From Candidatus Latescibacterota bacterium (GTDB taxonomy: Bacteria > Latescibacterota > CBDEFO01), in assembly GCA_965248755.1 (NCBI GenBank), contig OZ252149.1, positions 544,001 to 608,000 of the forward strand: 64,000 nucleotides of DNA, in the 5' to 3' direction. Below the pieces are notes generated by a model, which made no database searches, was not told the DNA's origin, and saw nothing but the letters and a program-made list of their open reading frames with translations. Both the position numbers and the translations under genes were made by a program. How positions within the stretch are numbered: the first letter of the stretch is position 1; every line of letters begins with the position of its first letter. Shown in pieces: positions 5,588-58,662 of the stretch.

Positions 5588-5842
5588 TGGCCTGATTAAT
5601 TCATAAATTTCGTGAAGTCATTGCGAGGAGCAAAGCGGTCCCCGATAGAATCAATCGGAGAAGCAATCTCAAGGTTTTATAGTGGTCTCCTATGAGATCC
5701 GGAGACTATTACATCTACAACAGAATCCAGATTGCTTCGCCTTCGGCTCGCAATGACACCGAAGGTGGTTAAACAGCATAACTATAATATAATACAATCT
5801 CTTAATTAATACACAGCCCTTTTTTGTGAATTATTCGGGTTA
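5588..5842 (-). mobile_element. MITE family A, copy 1 (about 255 bp, REP-like GTCATTGCGAG/GAAGCAATC hairpins inside)
   Basis: Reverse complement aligns along its length with 14829-15103; ends TAACCCGAATAATTCA / TGAATTAATCAGGCCA. Confidence 0.8.
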
Positions 5843-6194
5843 GAAGATCTACTATGTGTTTGTGCTGTCGAGATCTGCTCAGAACAGGGATCTCCTGCCC
5901 TCCTTCGACTATGAGCTTTTTCCAATTTAACTCTACGGCCGCGTCTATTGAGTCTTTTGTCTCCTCTATGAAGTCCTCTCTGTTGGAGGGATCGACCAGC
6001 GATCCGCAGGAGTTGAGAAAAGCTGCTATCTCCATGCCAGATACTGAAGCCGTTGACTTGACGGCATCCAGCTCCTTGTCCCTCCATCTCCAAAACTCAA
6101 ATGCCTTAAGACCAGCAGAACCCAGCTTTCTTATCCTCTCCTTGATCGGAAGGTCCTTATAGAAAGATTCTATGCATCCTGAAAGTCTGATCAG
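5802..6194 (-). pseudogene. 5' fragment of a hydroxypyruvate isomerase (Hyi)-like TIM-barrel gene, truncated by the MITE
   Basis: In-frame upstream extension LIRLSGCIESFYKDLPIKERIRKLGSAGLKAFEFWRWRDKELD...SLVDPSNREDFIEETKDSIDAAVEL; frame ends inside the MITE. Confidence 0.7.
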
Positions 6195-6215
6195 TGGATC
6201 TGTCCTTGTGAGACC

Positions 6216-7448
6216 TTATCTTCCAGGATACGCCCTGTTTTCAAGCTCAGCGATGAACTTCTCGGCCTCTATGGCAGCCGCCGCTCCCGTCCCTGCCGCC
6301 GTAATCGCCTGGCGGAAGACGTAATCCTGCACATCCCCGGCGGCAAAGACACCTTCGATATTTGTGTGCTGGACCCTGTCAGTTATGATGTAACCCACCT
6401 CGTCCATTTCGATCTGACCTTTGAAGATCTCCGTGTTGGGATAGTGGCCGATGAAGATGAACACTCCATCAACAGGCTTTATCGCCTCCTCGTCTGTCTT
6501 GACGTTCAAGAGACGGCTGGAAGTAACACCATTTCCGTCCCCGATAATCTCGGTGACTTTTGTATCCCAGATGAAGTCTATTTTATCATTTTTCCTGGCT
6601 CTGGTCTGAAGGATCTCGCTGGCTCTCAGTCTGTCTCTCCTGTGGATCATGGTCACCCTGGTGGCAAATCTGGTCAGGAACATCCCTTCCTCCACGGCGG
6701 CATCTCCTCCTCCGACCACTACTATTTCCTTGTCCTTGAAGAAGAACCCGTCGCATGTAGCGCAGTAGGACACACCCTTTCCTATGTATTCCTGCTCTCC
6801 GGGAATCTGCAGCATTCTGGGGGATGAGCCTGTGCTTATCACCACAGCTTTTGCGATATACTCAGTGTCATGCGTCCACGCTTTGAAGGGATAGCTCAAG
6901 AAATCCACCTTGTGCACGTAGTCGTACACTATCTTAGCTCCGAATCGCTCCGCCTGCGCTGTCATCTCCGCAACAAGTTCGGGTCCCTTTATTCCGTTTG
7001 TAAAACCCGGATAGTTTTCTATGTCCTCCGTAATAGATATCTGTCCTCCATGCTCCTTACCCGTTACCACTACGGTATCGAGTTCCGCCCTTCCAGCGTA
7101 GAGCGCAGCGGTCAGTCCGGCAGGTCCTGAGCCTATTATGAGGATCTCTGTAGACTTTGAATTGCCATTCCCCCGGTTTTCCTCTTTTGTTTGGTCCGAT
7201 GCCATATCGTCTAATTCCCCTGAAACTGCTAAGTTGTAAAGATCGTCATCGTCTCCTACGTACTTATCGTCTATGAATATCTGAGGGACGTCTCTGCGTC
7301 CCCCTGTCAGCTCCATTATTTTGTCCCTCATTTCCAAATTTCCGAATATATTTATCTCCTGGTAGGCGATTTTCAATCCATCGAGTATCTTTTTAGCCCT
7401 GTCGCAGTAAGAACAGTATTCCGTCGTGTAGATCTTGACCTTCTTCAT
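6216..7448 (-). CDS. trxB: Glutaredoxin-thioredoxin-disulfide reductase fusion
   Basis: N-terminal Grx domain (CSYC, DVPQIFIDDKYVG) followed by TrxB (IIGSGPAGLTAA, GVSYCATCDGFFF, VVGGGDAAVEEG, HRRD, GDVQD..RQAITAAGTG). Confidence 0.92.
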   Translation of the reverse strand: MKKVKIYTTEYCSYCDRAKKILDGLKIAYQEINIFGNLEMRDKIMELTGGRRDVPQIFIDDKYVGDDDDLYNLAVSGELDDMASDQTKEENRGNGNSKSTEILIIGSGPAGLTAALYAGRAELDTVVVTGKEHGGQISITEDIENYPGFTNGIKGPELVAEMTAQAERFGAKIVYDYVHKVDFLSYPFKAWTHDTEYIAKAVVISTGSSPRMLQIPGEQEYIGKGVSYCATCDGFFFKDKEIVVVGGGDAAVEEGMFLTRFATRVTMIHRRDRLRASEILQTRARKNDKIDFIWDTKVTEIIGDGNGVTSSRLLNVKTDEEAIKPVDGVFIFIGHYPNTEIFKGQIEMDEVGYIITDRVQHTNIEGVFAAGDVQDYVFRQAITAAGTGAAAAIEAEKFIAELENRAYPGR

Positions 7449-7727
7449 TAGCCCCTTATTCCCACGGCTTTTTCGGCTTACTCAGTTAAGTTTGAGGCGA
7501 ATAACTACAGTTTTGAAGTATAAGATAGACGGCAGGGAAAGTCAAGAATGAAAATCCGAAGCCAGACACATGAACTACTAAGCGTAAGGAAAGTCCCATA
7601 TCTCGGGGCATAACTCAAGAACGATTATTCTTCAATCCCAAATAGATGCGGTCGGTGATCTGCGTCCTTCAAACACACAGCGGAAACTTGGCAAGTATTA
7701 AGGCTATCCGACTTTCTCCTATCCTGC

Positions 7728-8453
7728 CTAGCCCATCTTGCTCAAGAAATACACCCAAATCACACCTGACGCTGCATAAGGAACCCACAGTCCAAATACG
7801 ATGCTTGTCCCCTTGCTCGTGGACATTCTGGCTACAATCCCTATTCCTATTGCCAGGATACAAAGATACCAGATTGTGAAAATATCGATCTTGTATGCGA
7901 CAGCGTACCAGACGGAGTCCTCCATATCGGGTGGCAACAGGAAAGTCAGACTTGTAAGGACCTCCATTGTCCCCTTGTTCAACATCAAAAGTGTCTTAAC
8001 GACTGTCTCCACAGTTACTATCAACCAACTGTAAGACACGACTGAAAACATCTGTGTGTAGTCCGTCTTTCCTCCCAGTACCACATTCACCATAAACAAA
8101 AACACAACCGCCTGCACAAGAGCCGTAAAGATAACACCTATGCCTCCTCCGACCGCAGTCATCGCACCCATTTGGCCTTCTGCCTGCCACAACTGCTCTA
8201 ACATCTCCTGCTTCTGCTCAGAAGACATACTCTCATTCTTCTCAATTGCAACTCTTTGCTGCTCTACCATAAGCGGTCTTAAAGCATTTCCCGCAGCGAT
8301 TACCACAATCACAGCAATAAGAAGCGGAACCGCCCAGTCGATCCAATGCATTTCATCTCTTACGGCCTCAAACGTCCTTTTAGGCGAGAAGAAAACCCCA
8401 ACTATCCTTGACATCAGCAGAACGTTGTCCCGCTTTGAAGTCTCATCTGACAT
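7728..8453 (-). CDS. Yip1-family membrane protein
   Basis: RIVGVFFSPKRTFEAV motif, multiple TM helices, IDIFTIWY. Confidence 0.75.
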   Translation of the reverse strand: MSDETSKRDNVLLMSRIVGVFFSPKRTFEAVRDEMHWIDWAVPLLIAVIVVIAAGNALRPLMVEQQRVAIEKNESMSSEQKQEMLEQLWQAEGQMGAMTAVGGGIGVIFTALVQAVVFLFMVNVVLGGKTDYTQMFSVVSYSWLIVTVETVVKTLLMLNKGTMEVLTSLTFLLPPDMEDSVWYAVAYKIDIFTIWYLCILAIGIGIVARMSTSKGTSIVFGLWVPYAASGVIWVYFLSKMG

Positions 8454-9248: not shown

Positions 9249-9257
9249 CTTTTTACC

Positions 9258-13360: not shown

Positions 13361-14083
13361 TCACCTAGTCTGGATCGTCCCCTCGTGGATATCGATCTCG
13401 TCCCTGTTCCTTACCTGGTCAACAGCTCCATCTCTCAGATCAACTACCCTGTCGGAGGCTACTAACATCTTGTGGTCGTGAGTGTTAGTTACAACTGTCG
13501 TTCCAATTTCCTTACTCATCACCTTCAGCAATTCGATGATCTCGGCGCCCGTTTGGAGATCCAGATTTCCCGTGGGCTCATCCGCCAGGATGATCTTGGG
13601 ATCGTTAGCCATAGCCCTTGCGATAGCGACGCGCTGTTGCTGGCCGCCCGATAGCTCAAAGGGTTTATGGTGCAGGCGATCTCCAAGTCCCACTTGTTCA
13701 AGCTTGCGAGCTGCCTTCCGGTCATATTCCTCCCTGCTTAGCCCGGCAAAGACCATAGGAAGTGATACATTTTCCAGCGCCGTCATAACTGGAATCAGGT
13801 TGAACGTCTGGAAGATATAGCCGATGCTGTGACAGCGAAGGTATGCAATATGGTATTGATCGAGGCCGCCGATGTCCGCCCCGCCGATGAGCACCTTTCC
13901 TTTTGACGGTCGGTCCAGCGCACCGATCATGTTGAACAGAGTAGTCTTTCCTGAGCCTGAGGGTCCCATAATAGAAAGATATTCCCCCTGATACACCGTA
14001 AGATCGATACCCTTTAAAGCGTCCAGCTTAACGTCGCCCATTATATATGTCTTCCACACATCATGAATCTCTATGATATTCAT
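13361..14083 (-). CDS. ABC transporter ATP-binding protein (LolD/MacB-type), no permease adjacent
   Basis: GPSGSGKTT, LSGGQQQRVAIARA, ILADEPTGNLD, THD; ATG at 14083 after AAGGAGG. Confidence 0.9.
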   Translation of the reverse strand: MNIIEIHDVWKTYIMGDVKLDALKGIDLTVYQGEYLSIMGPSGSGKTTLFNMIGALDRPSKGKVLIGGADIGGLDQYHIAYLRCHSIGYIFQTFNLIPVMTALENVSLPMVFAGLSREEYDRKAARKLEQVGLGDRLHHKPFELSGGQQQRVAIARAMANDPKIILADEPTGNLDLQTGAEIIELLKVMSKEIGTTVVTNTHDHKMLVASDRVVDLRDGAVDQVRNRDEIDIHEGTIQTR

Positions 14084-14195
14084 GTTCTCCTCCTTGACGT
14101 TTTTCAACAGATGAAAATCAACGGTAAAAGTTCAGTAGGGATCTCTAAAGGACATCATTTCAGCGTAGCGCCAAGGTAAGCCTTTTCCCAAAAAG

Positions 14196-14262
14196 TGTGG
14201 TGGGTCAGACATTCCTGTCTGACATGGATACTTTGAGGACAGACAAGAATCTCCGTCCTACT
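14196..14262. repeat. REP-like palindromic doublet (GTCAGACATTCCTGTCTGAC family)
   Basis: 28-bp TGTGGTGGGTCAGACATTCCTGTCTGAC identical at 14196-14223 and 39650-39677; companion ACAGACAAGAAT motif at both loci. Confidence 0.8.
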
Positions 14263-14346
14263 CTTGGTGTCCCGAGACCCTAAAGGGACGGGAGAGGTGC
14301 CCCTGTCTACCCCCATAGATTCAATCAGAGGTCTACGCTTTGCTGT

Positions 14347-14604
14347 CTACCTGATTTCTCCGTCGTATCTTCCTCTTGCCCGCCTGAAGATGACAAAATG
14401 CAAGATGATGCCCACAAAGAGTCCGAGCACATAGAGCCCCGTCGCGCCGACGCTTTCGGTAAAATGTTTTACTGCCATTCCTCCGACGAACATCGGTATT
14501 ACGGTGATCATAATCTTTGCAGTCGAATCGCCAAATTTCGGAGCGAGGAATCTGATCAGGCCTCCAACGATCAGGCCGAAGATGATCGAAGCGATTATGA
14601 TCAT
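14347..14604 (-). CDS. Small hypothetical membrane protein
   Basis: 85 aa, three hydrophobic segments; start overlaps the stop of the upstream ORF. Confidence 0.55.
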   Translation of the reverse strand: MIIIASIIFGLIVGGLIRFLAPKFGDSTAKIMITVIPMFVGGMAVKHFTESVGATGLYVLGLFVGIILHFVIFRRARGRYDGEIR

Positions 14605-14792
14605 TTTCTTTTCTTCCCAGACGGGGATCTGGCGGACTGTCTTTTAAGTCTTTGATTCACAATGTAAGGATGAGGAATATAGCGGCGCAGATATTCGAGC
14701 GCCCTCTTTCGAGTGCGTTCTTTTCCCTCATTCGGGAGGGGCTCTTGCGGTTCTTCAAAATTCTTGTCCGTCTTACCTTTCAAAGATGACAT
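14601..14792 (-). CDS. Small basic hypothetical protein
   Basis: 63-aa ORF with AAAGGGA upstream, ATGA-coupled to the next gene. Confidence 0.4.
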   Translation of the reverse strand: MSSLKGKTDKNFEEPQEPLPNEGKERTRKRALEYLRRYIPHPYIVNQRLKRQSARSPSGKKRK

Positions 14793-14828
14793 TGCAACAT
14801 CCCTTTCGCTGTGAACGTTTTTCTCAAT

Positions 14829-15103
14829 TAACCCGAATAATTCACAAACAAAGGTCGTATATTAATTAAAGGATTGTATTATATTATAGTTATGACGTTT
14901 AACCACCTTCGGTGTCATTGCGAGCCGAAGGCGAAGCAATCCCCCCGATAGATTTAATCGGGGGTTACTGTGGTAGATGTAATACTCTCCGGCTCTCATA
15001 GGAGACCACTATAAAACCTTGAGATTGCTTCCCCGACGGATTCTATCGGGGATCGCTTTGCTCCTCGCAATGACTCCACCAAGTTTATGAATTAATCGGG
15101 TTA
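14829..15103 (+). mobile_element. MITE family A, copy 2 (about 275 bp)
   Basis: Terminal inverted repeats TAACCCGAATAATTCA ... TGAATTAATCGGGTTA; homologous to 5588-5842 but carries an extra CCCCGATAGATTTAATCGGGG hairpin. Confidence 0.85.
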
Positions 15104-16029
15104 AAAAGCCTTTCAATAGAGTCCAGCATTTCGAGCGCGTCTTCGTATCCCATATTCAGCGTTTCGACTATCTTTTTTCGGTCCTTCGTTATTTTACCTG
15201 CAGGCGTCTTAGCCTTGGGACGCAATACTACGGTAGTTTTTTCCTCTCCATTCGGTAGTAGAGTCCCAGCCTCTCGTTGAGATATGTAAGAAATCGTCTC
15301 ATTGTACGTATTGTGCCGGTTCTGTATGGCCCCCATAACCCCGGACGCTGCATTCTTGAAGTAATTTCTAAATATCAAGAGTTCTGCATCTGATTGTCTC
15401 TTCTTCTTGTACCCCTTCATCTGTGTCAGTACAATAAGAAGGTGTGTGCATCCCAAGTCCAGGGCTTTCTTGACGGGTATGGCGTCGGCTATGCCTCCGT
15501 CTGTGTAGAAGGCTCCATCTATTTCAACTTCCGAGGGACAGGCTCCCGGAAGCGAAAGACAGGCGTAGATCACCTTAAGCAGATCCTCACTTCGGTTTGT
15601 GAAATATACCGGTTCTCCCGTCCGTGCATCGGCAACAGTAAAACAGCATTCGATGTTGGAGCCCTTGACCTCCTCAAGGCAAAGGGGAACCCTCTCGGCA
15701 AAGACTTTATAGACCAGGTAATCCAGGTTCAGCAGGGGATATTCTTTGTATCTTTGCGTAAGACCGCAGATCAGATTGGAATATCTGACGAATCTGTCCC
15801 CGTGCAGGTGGTTCTCCCATATTTCGACCATGTCATCGTACTGCCCGCTGGAAAAGTAGGCCAAAGTAGGGACGCTTGATGACGTGGCAAAGGCATAGTT
15901 GAAGCCTGTAAGACCATTTTGGGAAAGGGCCTTCAAGACGCCGACGACGTAAGCGCCTCTGAGCCCGCCGCCCTCCAGGACTAAACCGATTCTTTTGGTC
16001 GAATCGCTCATAGGAGTCTCTAATTTCAA
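15085..16029 (-). CDS. Patatin-like phospholipase family protein
   Basis: LVLEGGGLRGAY, YTDGGIADAIP, LIVLTQ; last codons and stop lie in the MITE. Confidence 0.85.
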   Translation of the reverse strand: MKLETPMSDSTKRIGLVLEGGGLRGAYVVGVLKALSQNGLTGFNYAFATSSSVPTLAYFSSGQYDDMVEIWENHLHGDRFVRYSNLICGLTQRYKEYPLLNLDYLVYKVFAERVPLCLEEVKGSNIECCFTVADARTGEPVYFTNRSEDLLKVIYACLSLPGACPSEVEIDGAFYTDGGIADAIPVKKALDLGCTHLLIVLTQMKGYKKKRQSDAELLIFRNYFKNAASGVMGAIQNRHNTYNETISYISQREAGTLLPNGEEKTTVVLRPKAKTPAGKITKDRKKIVETLNMGYEDALEMLDSIERLFNPINS

Positions 16030-17072
16030 TGAAGCTCCACAGCCTGCCCCGTCCGCGCCGATCGATAAGCCGCTTCCACTACTTCCACCACATCCAGGCC
16101 ATGGGTTGCGGGCGATAAGGGCTCCGCTTTCCCAAGTATGACATCCAGGAAATTGGCCACCGGCCCCTCCACCTGCCTCATATCCGATTCTTCGAGCGTC
16201 ACCGGGGACGATCCGGACTTTTGGAACGTAACTCTAAAGGGGAGTCCCTCTACCTCAAGGGTGCCTTCAGAACCGAAGTAGCGCTTCTGTACTCGGCGGT
16301 CGATTATTTCGCTATCTCCTACTCCCAGAATAGAACAGATCGAACCGTTCTCCATTTTCATAGATACGGCAGAACGCAAATCCATATCCGGATTGTCCAT
16401 GAAGGCGTAAACTTCCACTGGCCTTAGGCCGGTCGTCCACAGGACCTCCGAAACAAGGTGCGAAGCGCCGTCTATGAAGTACCCTCCACCGCTCAAGGAG
16501 GGATCGGATCTGTAGAGCGTAGGAGGGACGACTCCCGGAAGCGATTCGGGAGCAGGGACCTTTCCGAAGACATGTCCTACGTTGCCCACCCAACTTAACG
16601 CTAAAGCCTCTATCTTTCCTAACTCGCCAGATCCAATAAGGTCCTTAACATAGTTTGTATGAGCCCCGTAAGGGGGATTCAGAGCCACTATAAGAACTGA
16701 TCCCATCCCATCTGAAAGTTCTACAAGCCTTTTGGCTTCATCAGAGGTTAAAGTCATCGGCTTTTCTAATAAAACGTGCAGGCCTCCTTCCAGAGCGAAG
16801 ACCGTCTGTTCGTAGTGCAGCGATGGAGGCGTGACGATCACAACACCGTCCATTTCCACCGACTCTATCATCTCTTTGTAATCGGTGAATGTGCGCTCCA
16901 CACCGAAGTAATCGGCCATCTTTTTGAGCTGAACCTCGCTGCGCCTGCAGATAGCCACAATCTCGGCATCCTGCGATGCTGCAAGGTCAGGCATATGCCT
17001 CCTTGAGGCGAACCATCCCGCTCCGATCACCCCTATCTGCAATTTCCGCTCCGTGCTCATAACAGAAGGCAT
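16026..17072 (-). CDS. Gfo/Idh/MocA family oxidoreductase
   Basis: IGVIGAG, VTPPSLH, HVLLEKP, SGGGYFIDGASH, VVEAAYRSA. Confidence 0.9.
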   Translation of the reverse strand: MPSVMSTERKLQIGVIGAGWFASRRHMPDLAASQDAEIVAICRRSEVQLKKMADYFGVERTFTDYKEMIESVEMDGVVIVTPPSLHYEQTVFALEGGLHVLLEKPMTLTSDEAKRLVELSDGMGSVLIVALNPPYGAHTNYVKDLIGSGELGKIEALALSWVGNVGHVFGKVPAPESLPGVVPPTLYRSDPSLSGGGYFIDGASHLVSEVLWTTGLRPVEVYAFMDNPDMDLRSAVSMKMENGSICSILGVGDSEIIDRRVQKRYFGSEGTLEVEGLPFRVTFQKSGSSPVTLEESDMRQVEGPVANFLDVILGKAEPLSPATHGLDVVEVVEAAYRSARTGQAVELH

Positions 17073-17322
17073 TGAGGCTGTCCGATCTACCTGAAAGAGA
17101 GGTTGCCCATCCTCCTTTCCTGCAAATACTACTGTCCCCGTTAGTAGGCGAAGACGCGAGCGTCTACCCTCTAAATACGCTTAAATCGGGCACAGACTCA
17201 GGGCCGACCCCACGCAAGTCTATATCAAAAAGTGCTTGCTTTAAACCAGCATATCTGTTAGATTTTATCTTTATCTCTTTCTTAAAACAATTCAGAAAAA
17301 TAGAAAGTGAGGTCAACTTAAC

Positions 17323-17553
17323 ATGGCAAGGAGATGCGAAATCTGCGGCAAAGGTCCTGTCAGCGGCAATACCGTTGCGCGCAGAGGATCACCCAAGAGA
17401 AAGGGCGGAGCCGGAAGGAAGATCACCGGCATCACCAAACGCACTTTCAAGCCTAATCTACAGAGAACGAGAGCTGTGGTGGACGGATCGCCGAGAAGGA
17501 TAAAAGTCTGCACCCGATGCATACGCTCCGGCAGAGTAACCAAAGCAGCGTAA
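17323..17553 (+). CDS. rpmB: 50S ribosomal protein L28
   Basis: MARRCEICGK..GN, TKRTFKPNLQ, IKVCTRCIRSG. Confidence 0.96.
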   Translation: MARRCEICGKGPVSGNTVARRGSPKRKGGAGRKITGITKRTFKPNLQRTRAVVDGSPRRIKVCTRCIRSGRVTKAA

Positions 17554-17790
17554 CACTTTGAATTTCAGCTCGACCGGCGCAAGTTCCTGAATACAGATGT
17601 GCGTATCAGTCCGTCCTCTTTTCTGTCCTTTGTCTGCAGGCAACGATAAAGGCACAACTCGATTCCCTCGAAATCCAACCACTCATCTCTCTACTGAACC
17701 AGAACAAGGGCGATATCATTTTGATTTCATCTGGATGATAGACAAAATAGGGAAAAGAAACTCAAAAGTCAAGTAAGGAAAAAAGTTGTT

Positions 17791-18624
17791 TTAGCCGGCA
17801 AACTCCACCTGAATCTGCTTGGGGATCACACCCTCCTCAAAGCCCCGTCCGAGGAGCGTCTCTATCGCCTTTTTACCTCTCTGTCCGCAGTCGAGTGTGT
17901 AATCGTTGACGTACATCCCGATGAACGTATCGGCCAAGTTCTCATCCATACCCCTTGCCCAGTTTAAGGCGTAAGACAGGGCCTCCTTTCGATGATCCAG
18001 TGAATATTGTATGCTTGCGCGCACTATCCGCCCGATAAGTTTCATCTTCTCCTCGCCCAAATCCTTCCTAACCACATTTCCCCCTAAGGGCAGCGGAAGT
18101 CCCGTCTCTTGATGCCACCACTCTCCTAAATCTATAATCTTGTGGAGTCCCATCTTTTTGTACGTCAACTGGCCTTCGTGTATGATAAGACCCGCATCTG
18201 CCTTCCCATCTGCTACTCTTTCTAATATCTGATCGAACGGAACTACGATATATTCAAATTCTGTGGTGAGGAGGTTCAAGGTCAAAAAAGCCGTAGTCAT
18301 AGTCCCCGGTATCGCTATCTTCTTTTCCACAATCTCATCTGCAGTAGTAAAATGCGAAGAAACCAGCAGTGGACCGTAGCGGTCCCCCATGCTCGCCCCA
18401 GAGGTCAAGAGAGAATAGTTATCCGAGACGTAGGCGTAGGCGTGGATTGAGATAGCCGTCACCTCCAACTCACCGCTGAGAGCCCTTCGATTCAAGGACT
18501 CTATGTCCTCCACCACGTGTTCAAACTCAAGCCCATAGGTGTCTATCTTCCCTTCAGCCAGACCGTAGAACATAAACGCATCGTCCGAATCGGGGCTGTG
18601 TCCGAGTCTTATGGCATCTTTCAT
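17791..18624 (-). CDS. mqnD: 1,4-dihydroxy-6-naphthoate synthase
   Basis: LGHSPDSDDAFMFY, DIESLN, GLIIHEGQLTY, TGLPLPLGGN, MYVNDYT. Confidence 0.92.
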   Translation of the reverse strand: MKDAIRLGHSPDSDDAFMFYGLAEGKIDTYGLEFEHVVEDIESLNRRALSGELEVTAISIHAYAYVSDNYSLLTSGASMGDRYGPLLVSSHFTTADEIVEKKIAIPGTMTTAFLTLNLLTTEFEYIVVPFDQILERVADGKADAGLIIHEGQLTYKKMGLHKIIDLGEWWHQETGLPLPLGGNVVRKDLGEEKMKLIGRIVRASIQYSLDHRKEALSYALNWARGMDENLADTFIGMYVNDYTLDCGQRGKKAIETLLGRGFEEGVIPKQIQVEFAG

Positions 18625-18627
18625 CTA

Positions 18628-19245
18628 CTATTCTCCCGAACTTTTCGAACCTTGCCACTCAGGGTAGAGTTTGTGCTCTATTCCCAAGAGACTCAAAACG
18701 CGTCCTGCGATGAAATCTCCCAGGTCGTCGAAGGTTCTGGGCTTTTGATAGAACGCCGGCATCGCAGGCACCACCCTTGCACCGGCTTCAGCTACCGCTA
18801 CCATATTGCGGAGTTGTATCAGGTTCATCGGCGTCTCCCGCGGGACGATGATCAAGGGCTTGCCCTCCTTGAGCGTCACATCCGCAGCCCTTTCAAGCAG
18901 TGTGCTTGAAGACCCACAAGCTATTGCAGAAAGCGTCTTTGCAGAGCAGGGAACCACGACCATGCCGTCCGTCTTGACAGAGCCGCTTGCCAGAGTCGCC
19001 GAGAGGTCGTTTATGTTGTGCTCCTTTAGGATGCCATTTCTGACTTCGTCCCCGTACAAGCGTATCAGAAAATCGCTGAACTTCTCCTTGGACGGCTCAA
19101 AATCGGTCTCGTCCTGAAGCAGAAAACGGCCGTACTTGGATATAACAAGTCCCACCTGATGACCCTCCACAAGGAGGGCTCTTAGAAGCCTCAACGCGTA
19201 GACGGCCCCGCTGGCTCCTGTTATAGCCACAACAATATGTTTCAT
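18628..19245 (-). CDS. ubiX: Flavin prenyltransferase UbiX
   Basis: VAITGASGA, ASGS, PCSAKTL, RAADVTLKE, RETP, PAMPAFY; real start ATG at 19245. Confidence 0.93.
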   Translation of the reverse strand: MKHIVVAITGASGAVYALRLLRALLVEGHQVGLVISKYGRFLLQDETDFEPSKEKFSDFLIRLYGDEVRNGILKEHNINDLSATLASGSVKTDGMVVVPCSAKTLSAIACGSSSTLLERAADVTLKEGKPLIIVPRETPMNLIQLRNMVAVAEAGARVVPAMPAFYQKPRTFDDLGDFIAGRVLSLLGIEHKLYPEWQGSKSSGE

Positions 19246-19249
19246 TCTT

Positions 19250-20128
19250 CTACTCGATAAAGATAGGCTGAGTCCACGCCATCGCTCCGCCGGAGCCGTA
19301 GCACTCAGCCCTGACATAGACCAGCTCGTCTGGTTCTATATTTTTAAACTCAGAGATCGAAAACGAAGCATGAGGAGCATCTACGGTGGAGCGAATCGCG
19401 CCGTATCTTGTTATAAAGCGTATCCTCTGGCAGTTCTCCGTAGAGACAAAGATCGTATCTCCATCCACCCTAAAATCCCTGATCTCCACACCTGTGGATG
19501 AGTAGAATGACCCATTCCTTATCGCCTCCAATATTCCTTCCAGGCTATTATCGTTCGTCTTGACCACAATCCACGCCTTCTCCACGTCACCGGGAATGTG
19601 TGAATCGTCATTGGCGAATCCCCATGTCCTCCTTCGCAGAGATAACAACATATCCCATTTGTCCGTCGCAAGGGAAACCCCCGGTTCGCGCTCGATCACT
19701 CCGTTGTAGATCTCTATCCCTGCATAGCCATCTAAAGTCCGCATCAACTCATGTGGGCAATGATTGAAAGCTTCCTGCCAATTCGGGTGATTCAGGATAG
19801 CCATCGCCCCCTGAGCGTTTATTTTTTCGATCACAACCTGCCTGTCGGAATCTGGCTGGATCCTCTCTTTCGTCCCCACATGAAGGATGTGAGGACCGTT
19901 AGCAGTGACTTCCACACCCGGAATTAGCGTCATCTTCGTAAGACTCTGATAATCCTCAGGCTTTACCAGTCTATCGTGATCTGAAATAGACAAAAAATCG
20001 TATCCCCGCTGATCATAATCGGCGATAACCTCCTCAGGAGGACGACTGCCATCGCTCAGCGTCGTATGCGTATGCAGATTTCCCTTTAACCAACGCCCAC
20101 CTTCGATGTAAGAACTGACAAGTTTCAT
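19250..20128 (-). CDS. PHP-domain (CehA/McbA-like) metallohydrolase
   Basis: WLKGNLHTHTTLSDG, ISDHD, NHPNW, ANDDSH, YVRAEC..AWTQP. Confidence 0.8.
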   Translation of the reverse strand: MKLVSSYIEGGRWLKGNLHTHTTLSDGSRPPEEVIADYDQRGYDFLSISDHDRLVKPEDYQSLTKMTLIPGVEVTANGPHILHVGTKERIQPDSDRQVVIEKINAQGAMAILNHPNWQEAFNHCPHELMRTLDGYAGIEIYNGVIEREPGVSLATDKWDMLLSLRRRTWGFANDDSHIPGDVEKAWIVVKTNDNSLEGILEAIRNGSFYSSTGVEIRDFRVDGDTIFVSTENCQRIRFITRYGAIRSTVDAPHASFSISEFKNIEPDELVYVRAECYGSGGAMAWTQPIFIE

Positions 20129-20222
20129 CTTAATAGCATTTACCTGTGATTAAGGTTTGTAAGAATGCTTGGATTGACTCGTATCGGGGAGAATATTTGG
20201 CTTTCTAATAGCAAATAATATA

Positions 20223-20468
20223 CTACCTGGCAGTGTCAAATTTCCTCTTACTCGCATGAAGAAGCGTCACCACTATTACCTCTGCCTTTTCGTACCTGAT
20301 AATAATATAATCATCGGTAAGCTCACTTTCATCAGCGTGACGTGACTTTTTGAAGTTTAGATACACTACATCCGCTCCCTCGTCATAGCTGTACCAGATC
20401 CGCTTAAAAGGTATGTTTAACAGTTGAGGAACAGCGTTTAGAATATCTTTAATTTCTACTGTGGCCAT
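20223..20468 (-). CDS. DUF2283-like small protein (toxin-antitoxin-associated)
   Basis: YSYDEGADVVYLNFKK..ADESELTDDYIIIRY; a short partner-gene remnant (FYTRRID*IQRRTRLWPQ*) overlaps its start. Confidence 0.65.
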   Translation of the reverse strand: MATVEIKDILNAVPQLLNIPFKRIWYSYDEGADVVYLNFKKSRHADESELTDDYIIIRYEKAEVIVVTLLHASKRKFDTAR

Positions 20469-20517
20469 AATCTTGTCCTTCTTTGGATCTAGTCAATTCT
20501 CCTCGTATAAAAAGGTA

Positions 20518-21348
20518 TTAGATGGCTTTCACTTTTTCTTTTCTGAAAGGCATTTTGTTATAAACTGCCTTTACAGACTCATCGGTATCAAGCAATAATT
20601 GATTTGGACAATAATGAGTCTGATCTAACAACGTTCCTTGTCCGTATCCTTTTTCATCTTCAACAAAACCTAAGAAATGAATTCTTTCCTGTATATTCTT
20701 TGCAGCCCGAAGAGGATTATCATTCTCAAATATCCCTTCGATAGGTTTGCCGTTCCAGCAATTTACCCATCTATTCTTAGATGCTAACCCAGACTTTCCC
20801 TGTGCAATTTCATCATAATCAAAAACATCGCCACCGCCATCAAGATAGCCTCTCATATCAACCAAGATTAGACTAAAAACATTGTCTGAAATAGGAGGGA
20901 ATTTAATAGGCTTATCGTTTGAGTACACCTTTTCCCCTACTTTTTCTTGAAGCTTGATAATCTCACCCTCCACGCTTTGCCTTTTATCCTCTGCATCAGA
21001 CCGTAGAAGGGTAGTGGACAATAGTCCTTCATCTTTTGTTGCACGCTTTACGGCATCACTTATATTTATGCTTACAAGCTCGATCAACCATGAAGAATCA
21101 TCTTTAATTCTAAAATCCACAGTGGAGTTTTTCATACCAGCTTTATGTTCATAGTCAGCCGATAATCCTAAATGATACAGTTCCGCTGCAAACCGTAATT
21201 CGAAAAGAAGCGGTTTAGTTTCTTTACAAATTCCACCCCCTTTTTCAATTTTTTTGATCAAGGGTTGGACCCATGGGCAATATTTCAAATCAATGAGAAG
21301 GCATAAACAATAATCCCGTTCCTCTTTTGTTAGAAAATCAGTCCACAT
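20518..21348 (-). CDS. Hypothetical protein, AT-rich gene, possible PD-(D/E)xK-like fold
   Basis: 276-aa ORF visibly more AT-rich than its neighbours; FELRF..YEH..VDFRI..WLIELVS pattern. Confidence 0.6.
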   Translation of the reverse strand: MWTDFLTKEERDYCLCLLIDLKYCPWVQPLIKKIEKGGGICKETKPLLFELRFAAELYHLGLSADYEHKAGMKNSTVDFRIKDDSSWLIELVSINISDAVKRATKDEGLLSTTLLRSDAEDKRQSVEGEIIKLQEKVGEKVYSNDKPIKFPPISDNVFSLILVDMRGYLDGGGDVFDYDEIAQGKSGLASKNRWVNCWNGKPIEGIFENDNPLRAAKNIQERIHFLGFVEDEKGYGQGTLLDQTHYCPNQLLLDTDESVKAVYNKMPFRKEKVKAI

Positions 21349-21382
21349 GTCTTTTATCTATTAGGGCTTGCGTTTTCTATAG

Positions 21383-22276
21383 CTAACCATTGAGCAGAGA
21401 AGGCATTTTGCTGTTGCACAAGATATCCCCCAAAGTAAATGCGAAATAGAGGATGCTGACAATTCCGTTCATATTGAAAAAGGCGACATTTACCTTAGAC
21501 AGATCATCGGACTTTACAAGGCTATGTTCGTAGATCAAGACTGCCCCGACGATTATCACCCCTGCAAGATAGATACTGCTCAGCCCTAACAGAGCCTTGA
21601 TAGATAAAAGCAAAAACAGCGAGATTATATGAAATATGCGCGCTGTTATTAGTGCCCATCTGATTCCAAATCTCTGAGGGATGGAGCAGAGCTTATTGGA
21701 AGTGTCAAACTCGTAGTCCTGACAGGCGTATATAACGTCGAAGCCCGAAACCCACATCAGAACCGCGAGACCCAATATAAGCGGCGCGGCGTCCAGAGTG
21801 CCCGTTACAGCTATCCAAGCTCCTATGGGGGCAAGGCTCAACGATAAGCCCAAAAAAAGGTGAGTCGCCCAGGTGTACCTTTTCGTATAAGAGTAAAGAA
21901 AGACAATAGCCAAAGCCAGAGGCGATAGATAGAAACACAACGGATTCAGGTTGTATGCCGAAAATACCAACACCAGCGACGAAAGAACGACAAATATCCC
22001 CACGGCGGGAGGCGACAGGAGTCCCTGCGGCAGTTCCCGATTGCGAGTTCTGGGATTTACTTCATCTATCCTTCTGTCCACCAGACGGTTGAATCCCATC
22101 GCCGCGCTCCTCGCTCCCACCATAGCTAAAACTATCCAGAACACCTGCTGTGAACTTATACCCACTTTTGCCGCCGCCAAAACTGCCCCAGATAAGGCAA
22201 AGGGGAGCGCAAAGACGCTGTGGGAGAACTTGATCATCCTACCGTAGGTGACTATAGTATTCGTCAGCCTGTTCAT
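21383..22276 (-). CDS. mqnP: UbiA-family prenyltransferase, menaquinone MqnP type
   Basis: IKFSHSVFALPFA, ARSAAMGFNRLVDRRID..NPRT, YSYTKR, GFDVIYACQD, AFFNMNG. Confidence 0.9.
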   Translation of the reverse strand: MNRLTNTIVTYGRMIKFSHSVFALPFALSGAVLAAAKVGISSQQVFWIVLAMVGARSAAMGFNRLVDRRIDEVNPRTRNRELPQGLLSPPAVGIFVVLSSLVLVFSAYNLNPLCFYLSPLALAIVFLYSYTKRYTWATHLFLGLSLSLAPIGAWIAVTGTLDAAPLILGLAVLMWVSGFDVIYACQDYEFDTSNKLCSIPQRFGIRWALITARIFHIISLFLLLSIKALLGLSSIYLAGVIIVGAVLIYEHSLVKSDDLSKVNVAFFNMNGIVSILYFAFTLGDILCNSKMPSLLNG

Positions 22277-22411
22277 CACTTTTGTAACCGATCTGCCGAA
22301 GTTCCAAGCACACTTACCAGTAGGCCTGTTGGATTGTAGTCCGGAGGCATCCCACAACGCAGGCCAATCCTGCATTATCCTGAGGGAAGCAGGGCCTATG
22401 ATCCATGATTT

Positions 22412-23632
22412 TCAGGTCGATAGAGGTTCGATCATCTTCTGTTCAACCGATTCAACTAAATATTCGTAAGGATCTTTCACTGTTCTACCGTCTAAACCTA
22501 TGGCAATCATACTCGCTGCTTTGCCCTTCCGTATGCTCCCTACATTCTTATCCAGCCCCAAAGCCGTAGCTCCGTTCAACGTTGCCATCTCCACAATCCT
22601 TTGCGGCGCTACGTCCGGATACAATTCGTGCATAGCCTTCATCTCGTTGAACAGATTCAGGTCTTCCACGCTGGCAAGGCTGTCCGTCCCTATACAGACG
22701 TTTATATTAGCATCCATAAACCGACCGAGGGGGGCCACGCCGACCCTCAAGTTCCTGTTGCTGCGGGGGCACAGACACACGCTCACTTTCCTTTTCTTTA
22801 ATATCTCGATATCCTCATCTGTAGGATGCACAACGTGCACAGCCAGCGTCTGAAAGTCCCAGAAATTCAGCTTATCCAAATATTGCACTGGAGTGGTTTC
22901 GGGGATCTCCCATTCACTGTCCCATGCGCCTGCGAACTGGAGGAATCTCTTGAATCTGCCCTGTCCCGTATCTATAAAAAGAATCTCCTCCTCTGACTCG
23001 CAAAGGTGAACAGTCCTGATCTGATCACGCTCCCTTATTTGTCTGAAAAGCTGAGGTGAGACAGAGTAGGGAGCGTGCGGACTCAGAGCATATTTTAGGC
23101 GTTTGCTTTCGGGAAAGTCGCTAAGAAGCTCCGTGCCCTTTTGAAAAACCTCTTCCGCCTTATCTTCAGCAAATCCGATCAATTCGTGGAAAATTACGCC
23201 TGTAAGCCGGCTTTTGTATATCAAAGGGACAGAAGACCCCGTATTAGTCACGTCACCAATAGCCACAGTCCCCGTAGAGATCACTTCGCCGATAGCCTGC
23301 TCTATGGCCTCTTCATCCTTTTCCGGGCTGCGCCTCCACCTTTTTAGTACGAGCTTCTTAATCCAATCGACGAAATCCCCTTCGTTTCTTATCTCTCCTT
23401 TTAGAGAAGATAGCTCTAAATGCGTATGGGCGTTGACAAGACCCGGAAGGATAATCGTATCATCAAAGTCAGAAATTTCTCCGCCGTATGTCCCCAGTAT
23501 ATCCCGTCTCTTTCCAAAATCCAGGATAGTCGAATCGCGAATAACTACGGCTCCGTCCTCTATCGGCAGAGTCGCGACGGGCAGCACCCACTTGGCGGTG
23601 TAAATCTGTTCGATCTGTTCCGAGATCTCTAT
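22412..23632 (-). CDS. Amidohydrolase, probable aminofutalosine deaminase
   Basis: PGLVNAHTHLE, PHAPYS, VHLCES, CPRSN, GTDSLAS; lies inside the mqn operon; frame extends upstream through IYTAKWVLP to an ATA at 23632. Confidence 0.8.
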   Translation of the reverse strand: MEISEQIEQIYTAKWVLPVATLPIEDGAVVIRDSTILDFGKRRDILGTYGGEISDFDDTIILPGLVNAHTHLELSSLKGEIRNEGDFVDWIKKLVLKRWRRSPEKDEEAIEQAIGEVISTGTVAIGDVTNTGSSVPLIYKSRLTGVIFHELIGFAEDKAEEVFQKGTELLSDFPESKRLKYALSPHAPYSVSPQLFRQIRERDQIRTVHLCESEEEILFIDTGQGRFKRFLQFAGAWDSEWEIPETTPVQYLDKLNFWDFQTLAVHVVHPTDEDIEILKKRKVSVCLCPRSNRNLRVGVAPLGRFMDANINVCIGTDSLASVEDLNLFNEMKAMHELYPDVAPQRIVEMATLNGATALGLDKNVGSIRKGKAASMIAIGLDGRTVKDPYEYLVESVEQKMIEPLST

Positions 23633-23640
23633 GGAACTCC

Positions 23641-24453
23641 TTACCTGTTGTAAAACCTGATTTCGGGCATCCGTTCCCCGGTTAAATCGGGGATCAACCC
23701 CAGACCGCTACTATACCTAAAAAACTCTCTAAGTCCCTCAATCTCTCTGTCACCGAGGATGTAATTTATCTTATTTTTTAGATAATCCTTGTAAACCTCC
23801 GATGATCCGGGATGATTCTGGGCGTATTCGGAGGATATTTCGTCTATATGACCAGTTCCGACTTCTGCAGCCTGAATCAACGTTTGAACACTCTCTTGAG
23901 ACAGAGCGTCCCTGCGTCCCGACCAGAAGGCGTAGACAAAGGGGAGTCCCGTAAGCTCCGTCCACTCGTCTCCCATATCGAGTCTTGGGATCTCAGCCAG
24001 ACTGTCCAACACACTGTCTCCAATCATCAACGCTGCATCGGCTTTCTCGAGCATAGAATCCAGGTCAGGACGGCATCGTATAAAATGAGGCTCTATCCCG
24101 TATTTTTCCTTTAAAACGATCTTCGTCAACGCTTCAGACGATCTCGAATTTCTGTCAACCGCCACAGTTTTGATCTTGCCAATCTGTTCAATCTGTGGGG
24201 CAAAAAACCCCACGCTCGCTACAGGACCATACGAAGATATGCATATTTGGGGGACTATATGATAAGGGTCGGGACTCCTGGCGTACTCAATAGAAGGTAT
24301 CAGGCCCACTTCGGTCTCGCCGCGCGCAAGTTTATCCGAACAGGCGGATGGAACGTCGAAGATAATCTGGAAGTCGTGACTGATCAGGCATCTTTCTAAA
24401 GCGTATAAAAGCGGCTTGGAATTTAGAAAACTTACAGCGCCTAAGACTGGCAT
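23641..24453 (-). CDS. mqnA: Chorismate dehydratase
   Basis: GAVSFLNSKPL, PSIEY, SRSS, LMIGD, DMGDEWTELTGLPFVYAFW. Confidence 0.92.
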   Translation of the reverse strand: MPVLGAVSFLNSKPLLYALERCLISHDFQIIFDVPSACSDKLARGETEVGLIPSIEYARSPDPYHIVPQICISSYGPVASVGFFAPQIEQIGKIKTVAVDRNSRSSEALTKIVLKEKYGIEPHFIRCRPDLDSMLEKADAALMIGDSVLDSLAEIPRLDMGDEWTELTGLPFVYAFWSGRRDALSQESVQTLIQAAEVGTGHIDEISSEYAQNHPGSSEVYKDYLKNKINYILGDREIEGLREFFRYSSGLGLIPDLTGERMPEIRFYNR

Positions 24454-25559
24454 CGCTCCTCGGAAGAATCTAATATCTGATATTTCGTATTCCTGCGGCG
24501 CGGCTCATAACCCGCATCAGTTATAAGATGATGTATCTTCTCAATCGACATTTGGAATCTGGTTCCTGCCGCACTCACCACGTTCTCCTCCATCATTGTG
24601 CTGCCGAAGTCGTTGACCCCGTACTTAAGCCCGATCTGAGCTATCTTCTCCCCTTGCGTTACCCACGACGCCTGAAAGTTGTCTATATTATCCAGCATAA
24701 GGCGTGCGACAGCTATGGTCCTCAGATAATCGTAGCCGGTGGCCTTCTTTCCGTTCCAGCCGCCGCTCCGGGCAAGCTCGGTTTCGTCCGGCTGAAAGCT
24801 CCACGCTATAAACGCCGTGAAACCTCCCGCTTCGTCCTGAAGCTCCCTTATCCTCAGAAGGTGCTCCACGCGCTGTTCGTCGGTCTCGACCGACCCGTAC
24901 ATCATAGTCGCAGTCGTCCTTATACTTAAATTGTGCGCCGTTTGATGCACCTCCAGCCACTGTTGGGTCGTATCCTTCCTGAAGGCTATCTGGTCCCGAA
25001 CATCGTCGGATAAAATCTCCGCCCCTGCTCCGGGGATAGAATCCAGGCCTGCGTCCCTTAGCCTCTCTATCGTCTCTTTTATAGCAAGGCGCGAGATATG
25101 GGCTATATATATAATCTCCGTGGCTGAAAGAGAATGTATGTGCACGGGGAAGCGCTCCTTGATGGAGCTTAGCAGATCCTCATAGTAATCTATCCTCAAC
25201 TTGGGGTTGAGTCCGCCCTGCATCAGGATTTCACATGAGTAGGGCTCGGCCCCCCCTACATCTACCAACTCCTGGATCTTGTCGAATATCTGTTCCTTTG
25301 AGAGCAGATATCCCTCATCAGATCCGGGCGGGCGGTAGAAGGCGCAGAAAGAACATCTCACCCAGCAAACGTTCGTATAGTTGATGTTCCGACCAATATT
25401 AAAGGTCACCATCTTGGCGGGATGCTTCTTGTGCCTTATATAATCGGCTAACATTCCCAACTCAGGCAGGTTGTGATGCTTAAACAACCTGATGCCGTCT
25501 TTAAATTCCAATCTCTCTTGGGAGAAGACCTTTTCTGCTATATCTGAAATGCCTTTCAT
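24441..25559 (-). CDS. mqnC: Cyclic dehypoxanthine futalosine synthase (radical SAM)
   Basis: RNINYTNVCWVRCSFCAFYR, LMQGGLNP, PGAGAEIL, QASWVTQG, NDFGSTMMEENVVSAAG; start ATG at 25559. Confidence 0.92.
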   Translation of the reverse strand: MKGISDIAEKVFSQERLEFKDGIRLFKHHNLPELGMLADYIRHKKHPAKMVTFNIGRNINYTNVCWVRCSFCAFYRPPGSDEGYLLSKEQIFDKIQELVDVGGAEPYSCEILMQGGLNPKLRIDYYEDLLSSIKERFPVHIHSLSATEIIYIAHISRLAIKETIERLRDAGLDSIPGAGAEILSDDVRDQIAFRKDTTQQWLEVHQTAHNLSIRTTATMMYGSVETDEQRVEHLLRIRELQDEAGGFTAFIAWSFQPDETELARSGGWNGKKATGYDYLRTIAVARLMLDNIDNFQASWVTQGEKIAQIGLKYGVNDFGSTMMEENVVSAAGTRFQMSIEKIHHLITDAGYEPRRRNTKYQILDSSEERCQS

Positions 25560-25591
25560 ATCTATAGGCCTTATATAGTAGACATCAAAAA

Positions 25592-26746: not shown

Positions 26747-26769
26747 TCTTTCCCCGATTAAATCGGGGA

Positions 26770-30374: not shown

Positions 30375-30376
30375 AC

Positions 30377-30604
30377 TAAGTATCTTGACAAAATTTGTCG
30401 GAAATATTAAGTCAGTACAGGTGAGATTGCTTCGCTATCCCCGATAGATTCAATCGGGGATCGGAATGACGGTCGCAAGGGACCCGCAATGATATTACTT
30501 GGCTTTTGCTTATTGTCATCGCGAGGGGCACTTGCCCAGACCCTGTCAGGAGATGCGAGAAGCGGAACCAATCTCAAGGTAAGGGAGGCAGTACCCTGTC
30601 TACT
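30377..30604 (+). repeat. Composite repeat block: MITE family B left end, REP hairpins, CCCCGAT hairpin and heptamer motif
   Basis: TAAGTATCTTGACAAAA...TTAAGTCAG...GGTGAGATTG resembles 46691-46750; contains CCCCGATAGATTCAATCGGGG at 30439-30459. Confidence 0.65.
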
Positions 30605-30607
30605 TGT

Positions 30608-57270: not shown

Positions 57271-57812
57271 GGTAATTTCTCCTTTCTTGTCCCGCTCCAA
57301 ATTCCGGCATCAACTTGGTAACGATCTCCGTCTTTAATTCCAAATTCTTCATGTGATCCTTCTACCATATCGTCCATGATAATTCCTTTCATGAGCTTAT
57401 ATGTAATGAAGAATCCGTCAGCGCTAACAACGCCAAGCTCCAGGCCTAATCCCCACGTTAAGGAGAACCCTCCCCTAACTACTAAGGTATCTACTTGATT
57501 ATCTGATTGTATCTTGAATACCCCGTTGACACCAACTGGCAGGGCTGCGATTTTTGGACTACTCTCAATAAGATCCAAATAGTACGGAGGCATTATGTCA
57601 TCATTAAATCCATAAGACAATATAGCCTCATAGGTCTTTTCCTGCCCTGTGTTTTCGCTGATCAGGTTGCCTGTCCACAAACCATTTATGATCTCTCCCG
57701 GATCAGGTTCTTCATCTTCACCACACCCTGCTAAGAATACAGATATTATTACGACACTAGCTGGGATTGTGACAAAACATTTTCTAACCAAGCATTTTAT
57801 TTGTCTGTCCAT
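57267..57812 (-). CDS. Hypothetical lipoprotein
   Basis: Lipobox FLAGC after a hydrophobic stretch; stop overlaps the peptidase ATG. Confidence 0.6.
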   Translation of the reverse strand: MDRQIKCLVRKCFVTIPASVVIISVFLAGCGEDEEPDPGEIINGLWTGNLISENTGQEKTYEAILSYGFNDDIMPPYYLDLIESSPKIAALPVGVNGVFKIQSDNQVDTLVVRGGFSLTWGLGLELGVVSADGFFITYKLMKGIIMDDMVEGSHEEFGIKDGDRYQVDAGIWSGTRKEKLP

Positions 57813-57933
57813 TGCAATATTCCCTCTGATCAAGATTGAATTGGAGAATGTTGTTTGTAGCTATAGGCTTTGCTTTATTGTAAACCCTCCTCCTTTCCTT
57901 CGCCCGAAATAACTGCCGTTTGTTGCTATCTTC

Positions 57934-58472
57934 TCACCTCATCACGAAATAGGCCACAACTGCTATTATAATTATGACTACTACCACGATGGCGATTATC
58001 TTGCCACTTCCACCTTTCTCCGGCTCTCTGGGTGGTCTCCTTGCAGGCTGAGGTCTGCCAGGTGCAGCGGCGGGCTCTTCTTCCTCTTCATCCGAGGGTA
58101 CAGCCTGTCTCACCATAGTGGCTCCTGTATCCTCCGGGACAGCCTGTCTGACCATAGTGGCACCTGCATCTTCCTTTCCCGCAGCGACATCATCCACAAA
58201 GGCGAACTCCACCGTATGGAATTTGACCGTCTGACCATTCTTTAACACGTGTCTTGTGACCTTCTGTCCATCCACATAAGTCCCGTTTGTGCTCCCCAGG
58301 TCCGCACTATGTATCCGTCGTTCTCCTTTTTAATCTCAGCATGATTACGCGAGATTCCATCATCTGTCAGAACGATGTCATTTTCCTCATCCCTTCCGAT
58401 CTTATAACTTTCCGCCGTCAGTTCTAACTCTTGACCATTTAGACTCCCAGATTTGCAGAGAATCTTCGCCAT
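57934..58472 (-). pseudogene. FHA-domain membrane protein split by a 1-nt frameshift near 58305 (real or sequencing error)
   Basis: KIGRDEENDIVL..ISRNHAEI in one frame, DLGSTNGTYVDG..LKNGQTVKF, linker and C-terminal TM in the next. Confidence 0.8.
58096..58173. repeat. 39-bp tandem duplication encoding ED(A/T)GATMVRQAVP twice
   Basis: Two near-identical units 58096-58134 and 58135-58173. Confidence 0.85.
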
Positions 58473-58490
58473 AGGAATACCCCCTAAAAT

Positions 58491-58662
58491 CAGTAGACAG
58501 TAGACAAGGCACCTCCCCTCACTCCTTGTCCCCGACCCCCAACTGAATCTATAGGGGGTTCAATCGGGGATTGCTTCGGGGATAGCGAAGCAATCTCGAC
58601 AGACAGTAGTCCGGGGTTGGGAAGACTACCCTGTTTGCTGTCTACTGCCTTTATGCTGTCTA
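58491..58662. repeat. Composite repeat block: AGTAGAC heptamers, nested CCCCGA hairpins and a REP half
   Basis: CAGTAGACAGTAGAC; CCCCGA[CCCCCAACTGAATCTATAGGGGG]TTCAATCGGGG; GATAGCGAAGCAATCTC; TGTCTACTG. Confidence 0.75.

Follow-up and report, generated by a model that had tools for sequence, protein, structure and literature searches.

The window analysed here is the whole stretch of 64,000 nucleotides at positions 544,001 to 608,000 of contig OZ252149.1 (assembly GCA_965248755.1) of a Candidatus Latescibacterota bacterium, the genome of which (G000) is a single contig of 4.54 Mb. The window contains nine copies of a small hairpin with CCCGAT and ATCGGG arms, in a long and a short form, and this dispersed element is the subject of the present analysis. 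All nine copies reported in the initial annotation of the window are present, within 1–2 nt of where they had been placed, and they are the only ones in the window at four or fewer mismatches (long form) or two or fewer (short form). A site that carries the element is called filled, and the corresponding site that lacks it is called empty. Comparison with a sister genome of the same genus (G001, about 95% identity) revealed both kinds of allele, and the element was found most often to take the place of four target bases. The window copies are given below together with the copies of a MITE (miniature inverted-repeat transposable element), related to the insertion sequence (IS) IS1380, that hold some of them; REP denotes a repetitive extragenic palindrome and ORF an open reading frame.

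5591..5839, no strand: IS1380-type MITE copy, 249 bp, with terminal repeats, family ends and 4-bp YTAR duplications; the 5640 hairpin lies inside its CGTC-type REP
5639..5661, + strand: 23-nt element (T..A), a passenger of this MITE, in the orientation opposite to most paralogs at the same site
14309..14331, + strand: 23-nt element, degenerate, within a repeat of CTGTCTAC/GTAGACAG type; the sister genome is filled too
14832..15100, no strand: IS1380-type MITE copy, 269 bp, with a TTAA duplication and two hairpins inside
14942..14964, + strand: 23-nt element (C..G; variant with a TTT loop), carried by the MITE; its empty paralogs are shorter by 20 nt
15030..15052, + strand: 23-nt element (T..A), also carried by the MITE; its empty paralogs, shorter by 20 nt, have TTCGTCG
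23675..23693, + strand: short form (19 nt) within the 3' end of an ORF of PF02621 (menaquinone biosynthesis); the sister genome is filled
26751..26769, + strand: short form (19 nt) where a UbiD-family ORF meets a radical-SAM (CofH/MqnC-type) ORF; the sister genome is filled
30438..30460, + strand: perfect-consensus 23-nt element in a CGTC-type REP, filled in the sister genome
43918..43940, − strand: 23-nt element in a dead IS1380 (PF13701); 26 bases take the place of 23 in intact copies, and the sister genome is filled
58529..58570, no strand: nested composite, in which the inner 23-mer (58536–58558) took the place of the outer copy's TAGA

The empty sites of the copies at 14311, 23676, 26752, 30439 and 43919 were not seen because the sister genome is filled there too. 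The copies had been described as sitting in unrelated contexts, which does not hold for those at 5640, 14941 and 15031, all in copies of one IS1380-type MITE. The MITE is missing at 14828–15100 in contigs of three other runs (X4, X5 and X7), in which the joint skips 273 bases. No element-only polymorphism was found at 13500–31500 in the contigs of other runs, among the rows listed.

The repeat unit and its distribution

In total, 570 hairpin copies were found in G000, of which 530 are long (three or fewer mismatches to a 21-mer) and 40 short (two or fewer mismatches to a 17-mer). The genome-wide count proposed in the initial annotation gave 278 occurrences of CCCGAT-N7-ATCGGG and 22 of CCCGAT-N3-ATCGGG against a chance expectation of about 0.8 per gap length, confirming the enrichment. 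The bases that flank the 21-mer are complementary at 256 of 333 de-duplicated sites, versus 147 with shuffling, and this closing pair covaries, being T·A at 153 and C·G at 101 of the sites. The next pair outward is complementary at 95 sites versus 113 shuffled. Because base pairing stops there, the unit is 23 nt long (19 nt in the short form) rather than 15–21 as first described. The 23-nt element folds to an 8-bp stem of about −7.5 kcal/mol, the loop centre is its most variable position, and one stem variant shows a compensatory change from G-C to A-T. Judged by its sequence, the short form appears to be a long variant that lacks four loop-side bases.

The copies avoid genes: 97 of the 570 lie inside ORFs of at least 150 aa, which by a crude ORF caller make up 73% of the genome. 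Their orientation relative to genes is unbiased, and a role as terminators was rejected, with 146 copies in one orientation and 143 in the other between co-directional genes. No gene family was found to be enriched next to the copies in G000, nor at 164 loci elsewhere. Within the phylum, hundreds of copies occur in 2 of 168 genomes, while 162 have zero matches to a looser hairpin pattern and four have one or two. No published account of the element was found in a search that reached few subscription papers and no supplements.

Filled and empty alleles

The sister genome carries 313 copies at one mismatch, and the comparison covered 2.8 of its 4.6 Mb. Where both flanks were well aligned, the two genomes were of equal length at 128 of 224 sites starting from G000 and at 116 of 232 starting from G001. 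From 116 candidate events, 84 were anchored and 66 remained after a second anchoring, some of these being paralogous repeats of one another. The 23-mer replaces four target bases in 26 of the 66 events, three in 8 and five in 8; it is accompanied by four extra bases, often as a 4-nt duplication, in 9, and the remaining 15 are larger or secondary changes. No clean insertion was observed among the 66 anchored events, and there were none at offsets 0, +1, −1, −2 or −3. In net length, the events fall into a +19 class, in which 23 nt stand for 4 (+15 with the short form), and a +27 class, in which 4 nt come on top of the 23. Filled and empty alleles in relatives, the check suggested earlier, are therefore real, and they uphold the initial reading of a non-coding, trans-mobilised micro-insertion element comparable to the small dispersed repeats (SDRs) of cyanobacteria.

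The polarity of these events, insertion and not loss, is shown by disrupted or lengthened genes and by nesting. Five genes that are intact in G000 gain 5, 6, 7, 9 and 9 residues in their filled alleles, and the reading frame is shifted in two IS ORFs and in an ORF of 151 aa; three more tested ORFs were ambiguous. A single IS family has 15 filled and 55 empty copies. Among nested copies, 45 of 69 replace four bases of the parent copy, 44 of them at an identical TAGA/TCTA window and one at its mirror. Gains of +38, +58 and +61 at formerly empty sites fit repeated or composite insertion. Head-to-tail tandem 27-mers (the 23-mer plus CAGG) were also observed in paralogous genes of the sister genome (L060:138-400 and L060:3014).

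The element varies, and the variants are linked to their flanks. Copies of the ATTC/ACTC variants have a 3' CAGG in 48 of 74 cases, compared with 68 of 783 other copies (counts not de-duplicated), and the linkage between variant and flank reaches p of about 0.002 at several positions. These variants keep their closing pair and 3' CAGG when they reach unrelated sites; therefore, copies act as donors, and some of the extra four-base tracts are donor-derived.

Three other accounts of the allelic differences were rejected. A sequencing or assembly artefact is at odds with the 113 orthologous sites at which an independent genome, normally diverged, is filled as well. In-place flipping is not frequent, being seen at 1 of the 113 shared sites. 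The one-armed products predicted by coupling-sequence recombination are rare, at 13 of about 370 cores.

Target preference

Insertion at YGATC^G had been proposed from in-silico excision. Over the whole genome, excision rebuilds YGATCG/CGATCR at 78 of 333 sites, and shuffled flanks give 77.9. In real empty alleles the motif is present at 3 of 41 sites, against a background of 0.5%. The CGATCG rebuilt at 15031 is not the original sequence, the true empty allele there and at 5640 being TTCGTCG. At 43919 the intact IS1380 does have TGATCG, as had been noticed; the event itself was no clean insertion, with 23 IS bases replaced by 26. The absence of a target duplication does not stand either, since 4-nt duplications were found at 15 of 333 sites versus 2.2 expected. 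Guidance by methylation sites is likewise not borne out by the empty sites, and CGATCG is depleted rather than iterated in G000 (observed/expected ratio, O/E, 0.56). Guidance of insertion by break repair is plausible.

The empty sites show a weak microhomology, (R)TC^G, to the TC..GA termini of the element itself, and YGATCG is one instance of it: TCG or CGA lies at the centre of 10 of 41 empty sites, versus a background of 10.5%. A bias toward small repeats is stronger than this, in that 198 of 440 de-duplicated copies have a member of four small-repeat classes no more than 58 nt away, compared with 9% of intergenic controls. The element's own TAGA is hit more often than any other single target, and hairpin context at empty targets is weakly enriched (p = 0.017 against the whole-genome background). 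The 4-nt duplications are mainly TTGA/TCAA, CAAG and CAGG (24 of 32 apparent duplications). Apart from CGATCG, G000 strongly avoids CTAG (O/E 0.25) and is poor in many six-base palindromes that have TCGA at the core.

About 37 IS1380-type MITEs of 120–270 bp captured CGTC REPs first and hairpin elements later. Their ends are common to an intact-looking IS1380 at G000:C1:2921195-2922841, which has a 448-aa frame and a CTAG duplication. The intact IS1380-family transposase gene in the window (28496–29893, PF13701) belongs to a family of about 55 copies, with ends unlike those of the MITE.

Origin of the element

The exact 21-mer also occurs in genomes of Deltaproteobacteria/Thermodesulfobacteriota, among the matches listed, in 12 of 41 relatives of one carrier genome (G041), and in at least 120 metagenome stretches. 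A single exact copy was found on a short contig labelled Nanoarchaeia (L189), the only one of that genome, which may be mis-binned. A phage source was rejected, with 0 exact matches in viral contigs; 118 looser matches there are unrelated hairpins.

At the Deltaproteobacterial loci the hairpin forms the stem-loop within a REP that bears a TGTCA tag and is often dimeric; one stem position is A, G or T, and the loop is variable. The tagged form there reads GTCA-T-CCCCGA[AGT]TG-nnn-CTATCGGGG-A-T, and the free element differs from this stem-loop only in the loop and one stem base. Among the relatives of G041, which as kin are not independent, 8 of the 12 that carry the free element have the tagged form, as do 2 of the 29 that lack it. 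In G000 the CGTC or TGTC tag at the stem foot is kept in 2 of the 570 copies. The published degenerate SRM string matches 0 of 570, although the pattern used also missed the REPs that flank a GIY-YIG gene of the sister genome (below). Compared in sequence, the free element is likely to derive from the stem-loop of a CGTC/SRM REP that lost its GTCA tag.

For CGTC REPs, no transposase is reported as found in the accessible text of PMC3733652. The accessible part of PMC11893778 describes Ssn GIY-YIG nucleases, which cut single-stranded DNA (ssDNA) beside such hairpins, a few bases upstream of the tag. Ssn-like genes, called in the present analysis by a Pfam GIY-YIG match and not by cd10448, stand near the tagged REP in two genomes: in G065 the REP precedes the match by 8 bp, and in G076 the two are 153 bp apart. 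G065 has 60 copies of the tagged REP, often as direct pairs about 200 bp apart, and its Ssn-like gene is at C14:119028-119315. In the sister genome, a 107-aa Ssn-like GIY-YIG gene (L341:1447-1767) lies between two inverted CGTC REPs. The matching G000 locus is without this gene, and the REP-GIY-YIG cassette therefore looks mobile; it adjoins toxin-antitoxin-like genes and a duplicated flank. Many REP types, GTAG-type hairpins among them, persist in G000 without a RAYT or Ssn gene.

Proposed mechanism and alternatives

Our preferred interpretation, held with a little less than even confidence, is that a tagless REP hairpin moves as folded ssDNA, probably after release by an Ssn-type nuclease, and is patched in by host repair with replacement or addition of four bases. 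The hairpin would be excised as a single-stranded oligonucleotide, likely by an Ssn-type GIY-YIG ssDNA nuclease. Exonucleases would then trim this intermediate to the stem, with 0 or 4 flanking bases kept. The terminal 2–3 bases of the hairpin would pair with a target strand that is exposed, and the hairpin would be ligated in at a gap of 4 nt or at a displaced flap of that length, forming a bulged three-way junction; replication would then fix it. Release by Ssn is the weakest step, and Ssn may act episodically from a mobile REP-ssn-REP cassette; it is the best-named candidate for a releasing enzyme that is unproven. Taken further, the element could represent a distinct minimal mobile DNA, a 19–42-nt ssDNA hairpin from Ssn-associated REPs that enters single-stranded targets in a fixed four-base register by nuclease plus ligase and no transposase; we regard this broader claim as tentative and rather unlikely.

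Several observations weigh against this interpretation. Some concern the four-base register: 24 of the 69 nested copies deviate from it, 3 of them being clean; the 43919 copy replaces 23 nt; paralogous empty sites in the other phylum, that of the Deltaproteobacterial carriers, gave +27, +20, +14 and +12 and none +19; and in-frame +27 gains within genes are favoured by selection. The events are partly non-independent, through paralogs and through nested composites that may spread by conversion, and raw reads and intermediates were unseen, the data of other runs being contigs only. Others concern the nuclease. G000 is without a small GIY-YIG gene, a search yielding only a 608-aa frame and tblastn only REP-derived bits, and it has lineage-specific hairpin gains despite this. 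Ssn homologs occur in 5 of the 12 genomes with the free element and in 9 of the 29 without it; G065 and G076 have both REP and Ssn yet no exact free element; and the Ssn gene of the sister genome has another hairpin on its flanks. Within CGTC REPs the insertion points lie 11–14 nt inside, with none 1–14 nt upstream of the tag, whereas SsnA, according to the accessible part of PMC11893778, needs the tag and cuts upstream of it.

A close rival to Ssn release, which we consider doubtful on balance, dispenses with a dedicated enzyme altogether. Exonuclease-resistant hairpin fragments, arising as DNA is replicated or turned over in the ordinary way, would anneal by 2–3 nt of microhomology at single-stranded gaps and be sealed in by host repair, a route that resembles short-patch illegitimate recombination, and the REP origin would be incidental. 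The lack of any Ssn, Y1 or Cas1 gene in G000 is as expected from this, and so are the TCG/CGA excess at empty centres, the recurrence of nested composites with the same inner variant, as conversion would give, and junction mismatches that climb toward the insert (0.27, 0.20 and 0.13 at positions 1–3 versus about 0.06 farther away, in raw anchors). Patching by chance fragments is harder to reconcile with the sharp +4/−4 register and its zero clean insertions, or with one self-target window used 44 times and its mirror once. Moreover, equally stable other hairpins do not reach hundreds of copies, and only the two genomes of the phylum noted above do so for this one. Transfer by an HUH tyrosine transposase (RAYT or IS200-IS605 TnpA), which would peel and paste the hairpin with a 4-nt tail 3' of a tetranucleotide, is improbable. 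The 27-nt units do resemble such a hairpin plus tail, the duplications favour the few tetranucleotides named above, GTAG-type REP hairpins are present in G000, and Y1 genes are common in four Deltaproteobacterial carriers. However, peel-and-paste removes no target bases, whereas the main event class loses four; the target tetranucleotide is not fixed, and a PF01797 match is absent in both G000 and the sister genome.

The remaining alternatives are much less probable. The model of the initial annotation, in which a methylated or cut YGATC^G guides insertion as for SDR5 at HIP1, is very unlikely: several N6/N4 methyltransferase genes exist, CGATCG is avoided as expected of a restriction site, and the motif exceeds its background at empty sites, but it is missing at 38 of the 41, the excision result equals the shuffle, and the commonest target is the element's own TAGA. 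Still less probable is movement by the IS1380 DDE transposase, with the hairpin passing for an IS1380 end and behaving as an ultra-short MITE. The MITE end CCCGA(T/A)TAATTCA agrees with the element arm at 11 of 13 bases (a post hoc match), and an intact IS1380 in G000 shares these ends and has 4-bp duplications. Against this, the MITE duplications are YTAR and those of the element are not, most events delete rather than duplicate, and the two do not co-segregate, as G055 has 51 ends and no element, and in G041 a single weak end accompanies 18 exact elements. The 51 ends in G055 are of a related IS1380-type MITE, spread over many contigs. The least probable of the explanations considered is that a retron-like reverse transcriptase (RT) templates the hairpin from one master RNA. 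Two RT genes are present in G000, one of them retron-like, but the best match beside either has 9 mismatches in 21, the retron-like gene is interrupted by an IS, and the many variant subfamilies with their own flanks point to many DNA donors. The retron-like RT locus (G000:C1:3731484-3733370) has a 301-aa partner upstream, and the IS that cuts the 3' end of the RT itself carries a hairpin element. Of the co-occurring genes that the initial annotation proposed to look for, G000 has no Y1/RAYT and no small GIY-YIG gene, and no hairpin lies beside its RTs.

Significance

How very small repeats such as SDRs and CGTC REPs spread is a long-open question. The present element supplies dozens of before/after junctions, a sharp +19/+27 signature, a favoured target within its own sequence and a candidate enzyme family that can be named, and the question therefore becomes a direct experiment with an oligonucleotide plus an enzyme. 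In this lineage the element is a steady mutagen that lengthens genes by 5–9 residues, inactivates IS copies and reshapes the repeats between genes. If the broader claim of a distinct minimal mobile DNA is true, splicing of ssDNA hairpins would be the missing propagation mechanism for CGTC REPs and SDR-like repeats. Both the geometry of 4-nt replacement or duplication and the CGTC/SRM REP origin had been missed in the initial annotation.

Comparison with known systems

SDR1–8 of Nostocaceae, reportedly described by Elhai et al. in 2008, are said to be non-coding repeats of about 21–27 nt with hundreds of copies, filled and empty alleles, nesting and an enzyme that is unknown. By that description the present element is similar in being tiny, dispersed and non-coding, with hundreds of copies, empty alleles and nesting. 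It differs in its phylum, in having no HIP1 target, in overwriting or duplicating four bases, and in having a traceable REP parent. SDR5, by contrast, inserts precisely inside HIP1 GCGATCGC, as stated in the accessible part of PMC4390886.

With CGTC REPs (SRMs), taken here as one class with the NTS/Ssn-related motifs that Ssn nucleases cut, and as far as the accessible texts of Di Nocera et al. 2013 (PMC3733652) and Chenal et al. 2025 (PMC11893778) describe them, the element shares an 8-bp GC-rich stem, A/T at the foot and occasional in-frame intragenic copies. Unlike these REPs, it is without the tag or a CCA tail, occurs as single units rather than dimers, and enters arbitrary sites, other repeats and itself in a 4-nt replace/duplicate register. 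Flanking of an Ssn gene, a feature of CGTC REP/SRM, was not seen in G000 and was seen for the tagged form in G065 and G076. How CGTC REPs move is shown in neither source in its accessible part, and NTS-ssnA-NTS as a mobile unit is only raised as an idea in that of PMC11893778.

REPs and REPINs with RAYT, in the accessible account of Bertels and Rainey 2011 (PMC3116915), are likewise hairpin-based, non-autonomous and thought to move as ssDNA. REPINs move as doublets, singlet excision not having been seen according to that account, whereas a single hairpin moves here, and both the GTAG tag and a RAYT gene are missing. The Rickettsia elements RPE-4 and RPE-6 (PMC3733652, accessible part) are also CGTC-family palindromes found in frame in genes; they keep the tag, whereas the present element is tagless and mostly frameshifting (+19) unless selected. 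From MITEs it is set apart by the missing fixed duplication (15 of 333 sites) and by the lack of co-segregation with the IS1380 end. Overall, the element is outside SDR5, CGTC REPs, REPINs and MITEs by their defining features, and it works like an SDR.

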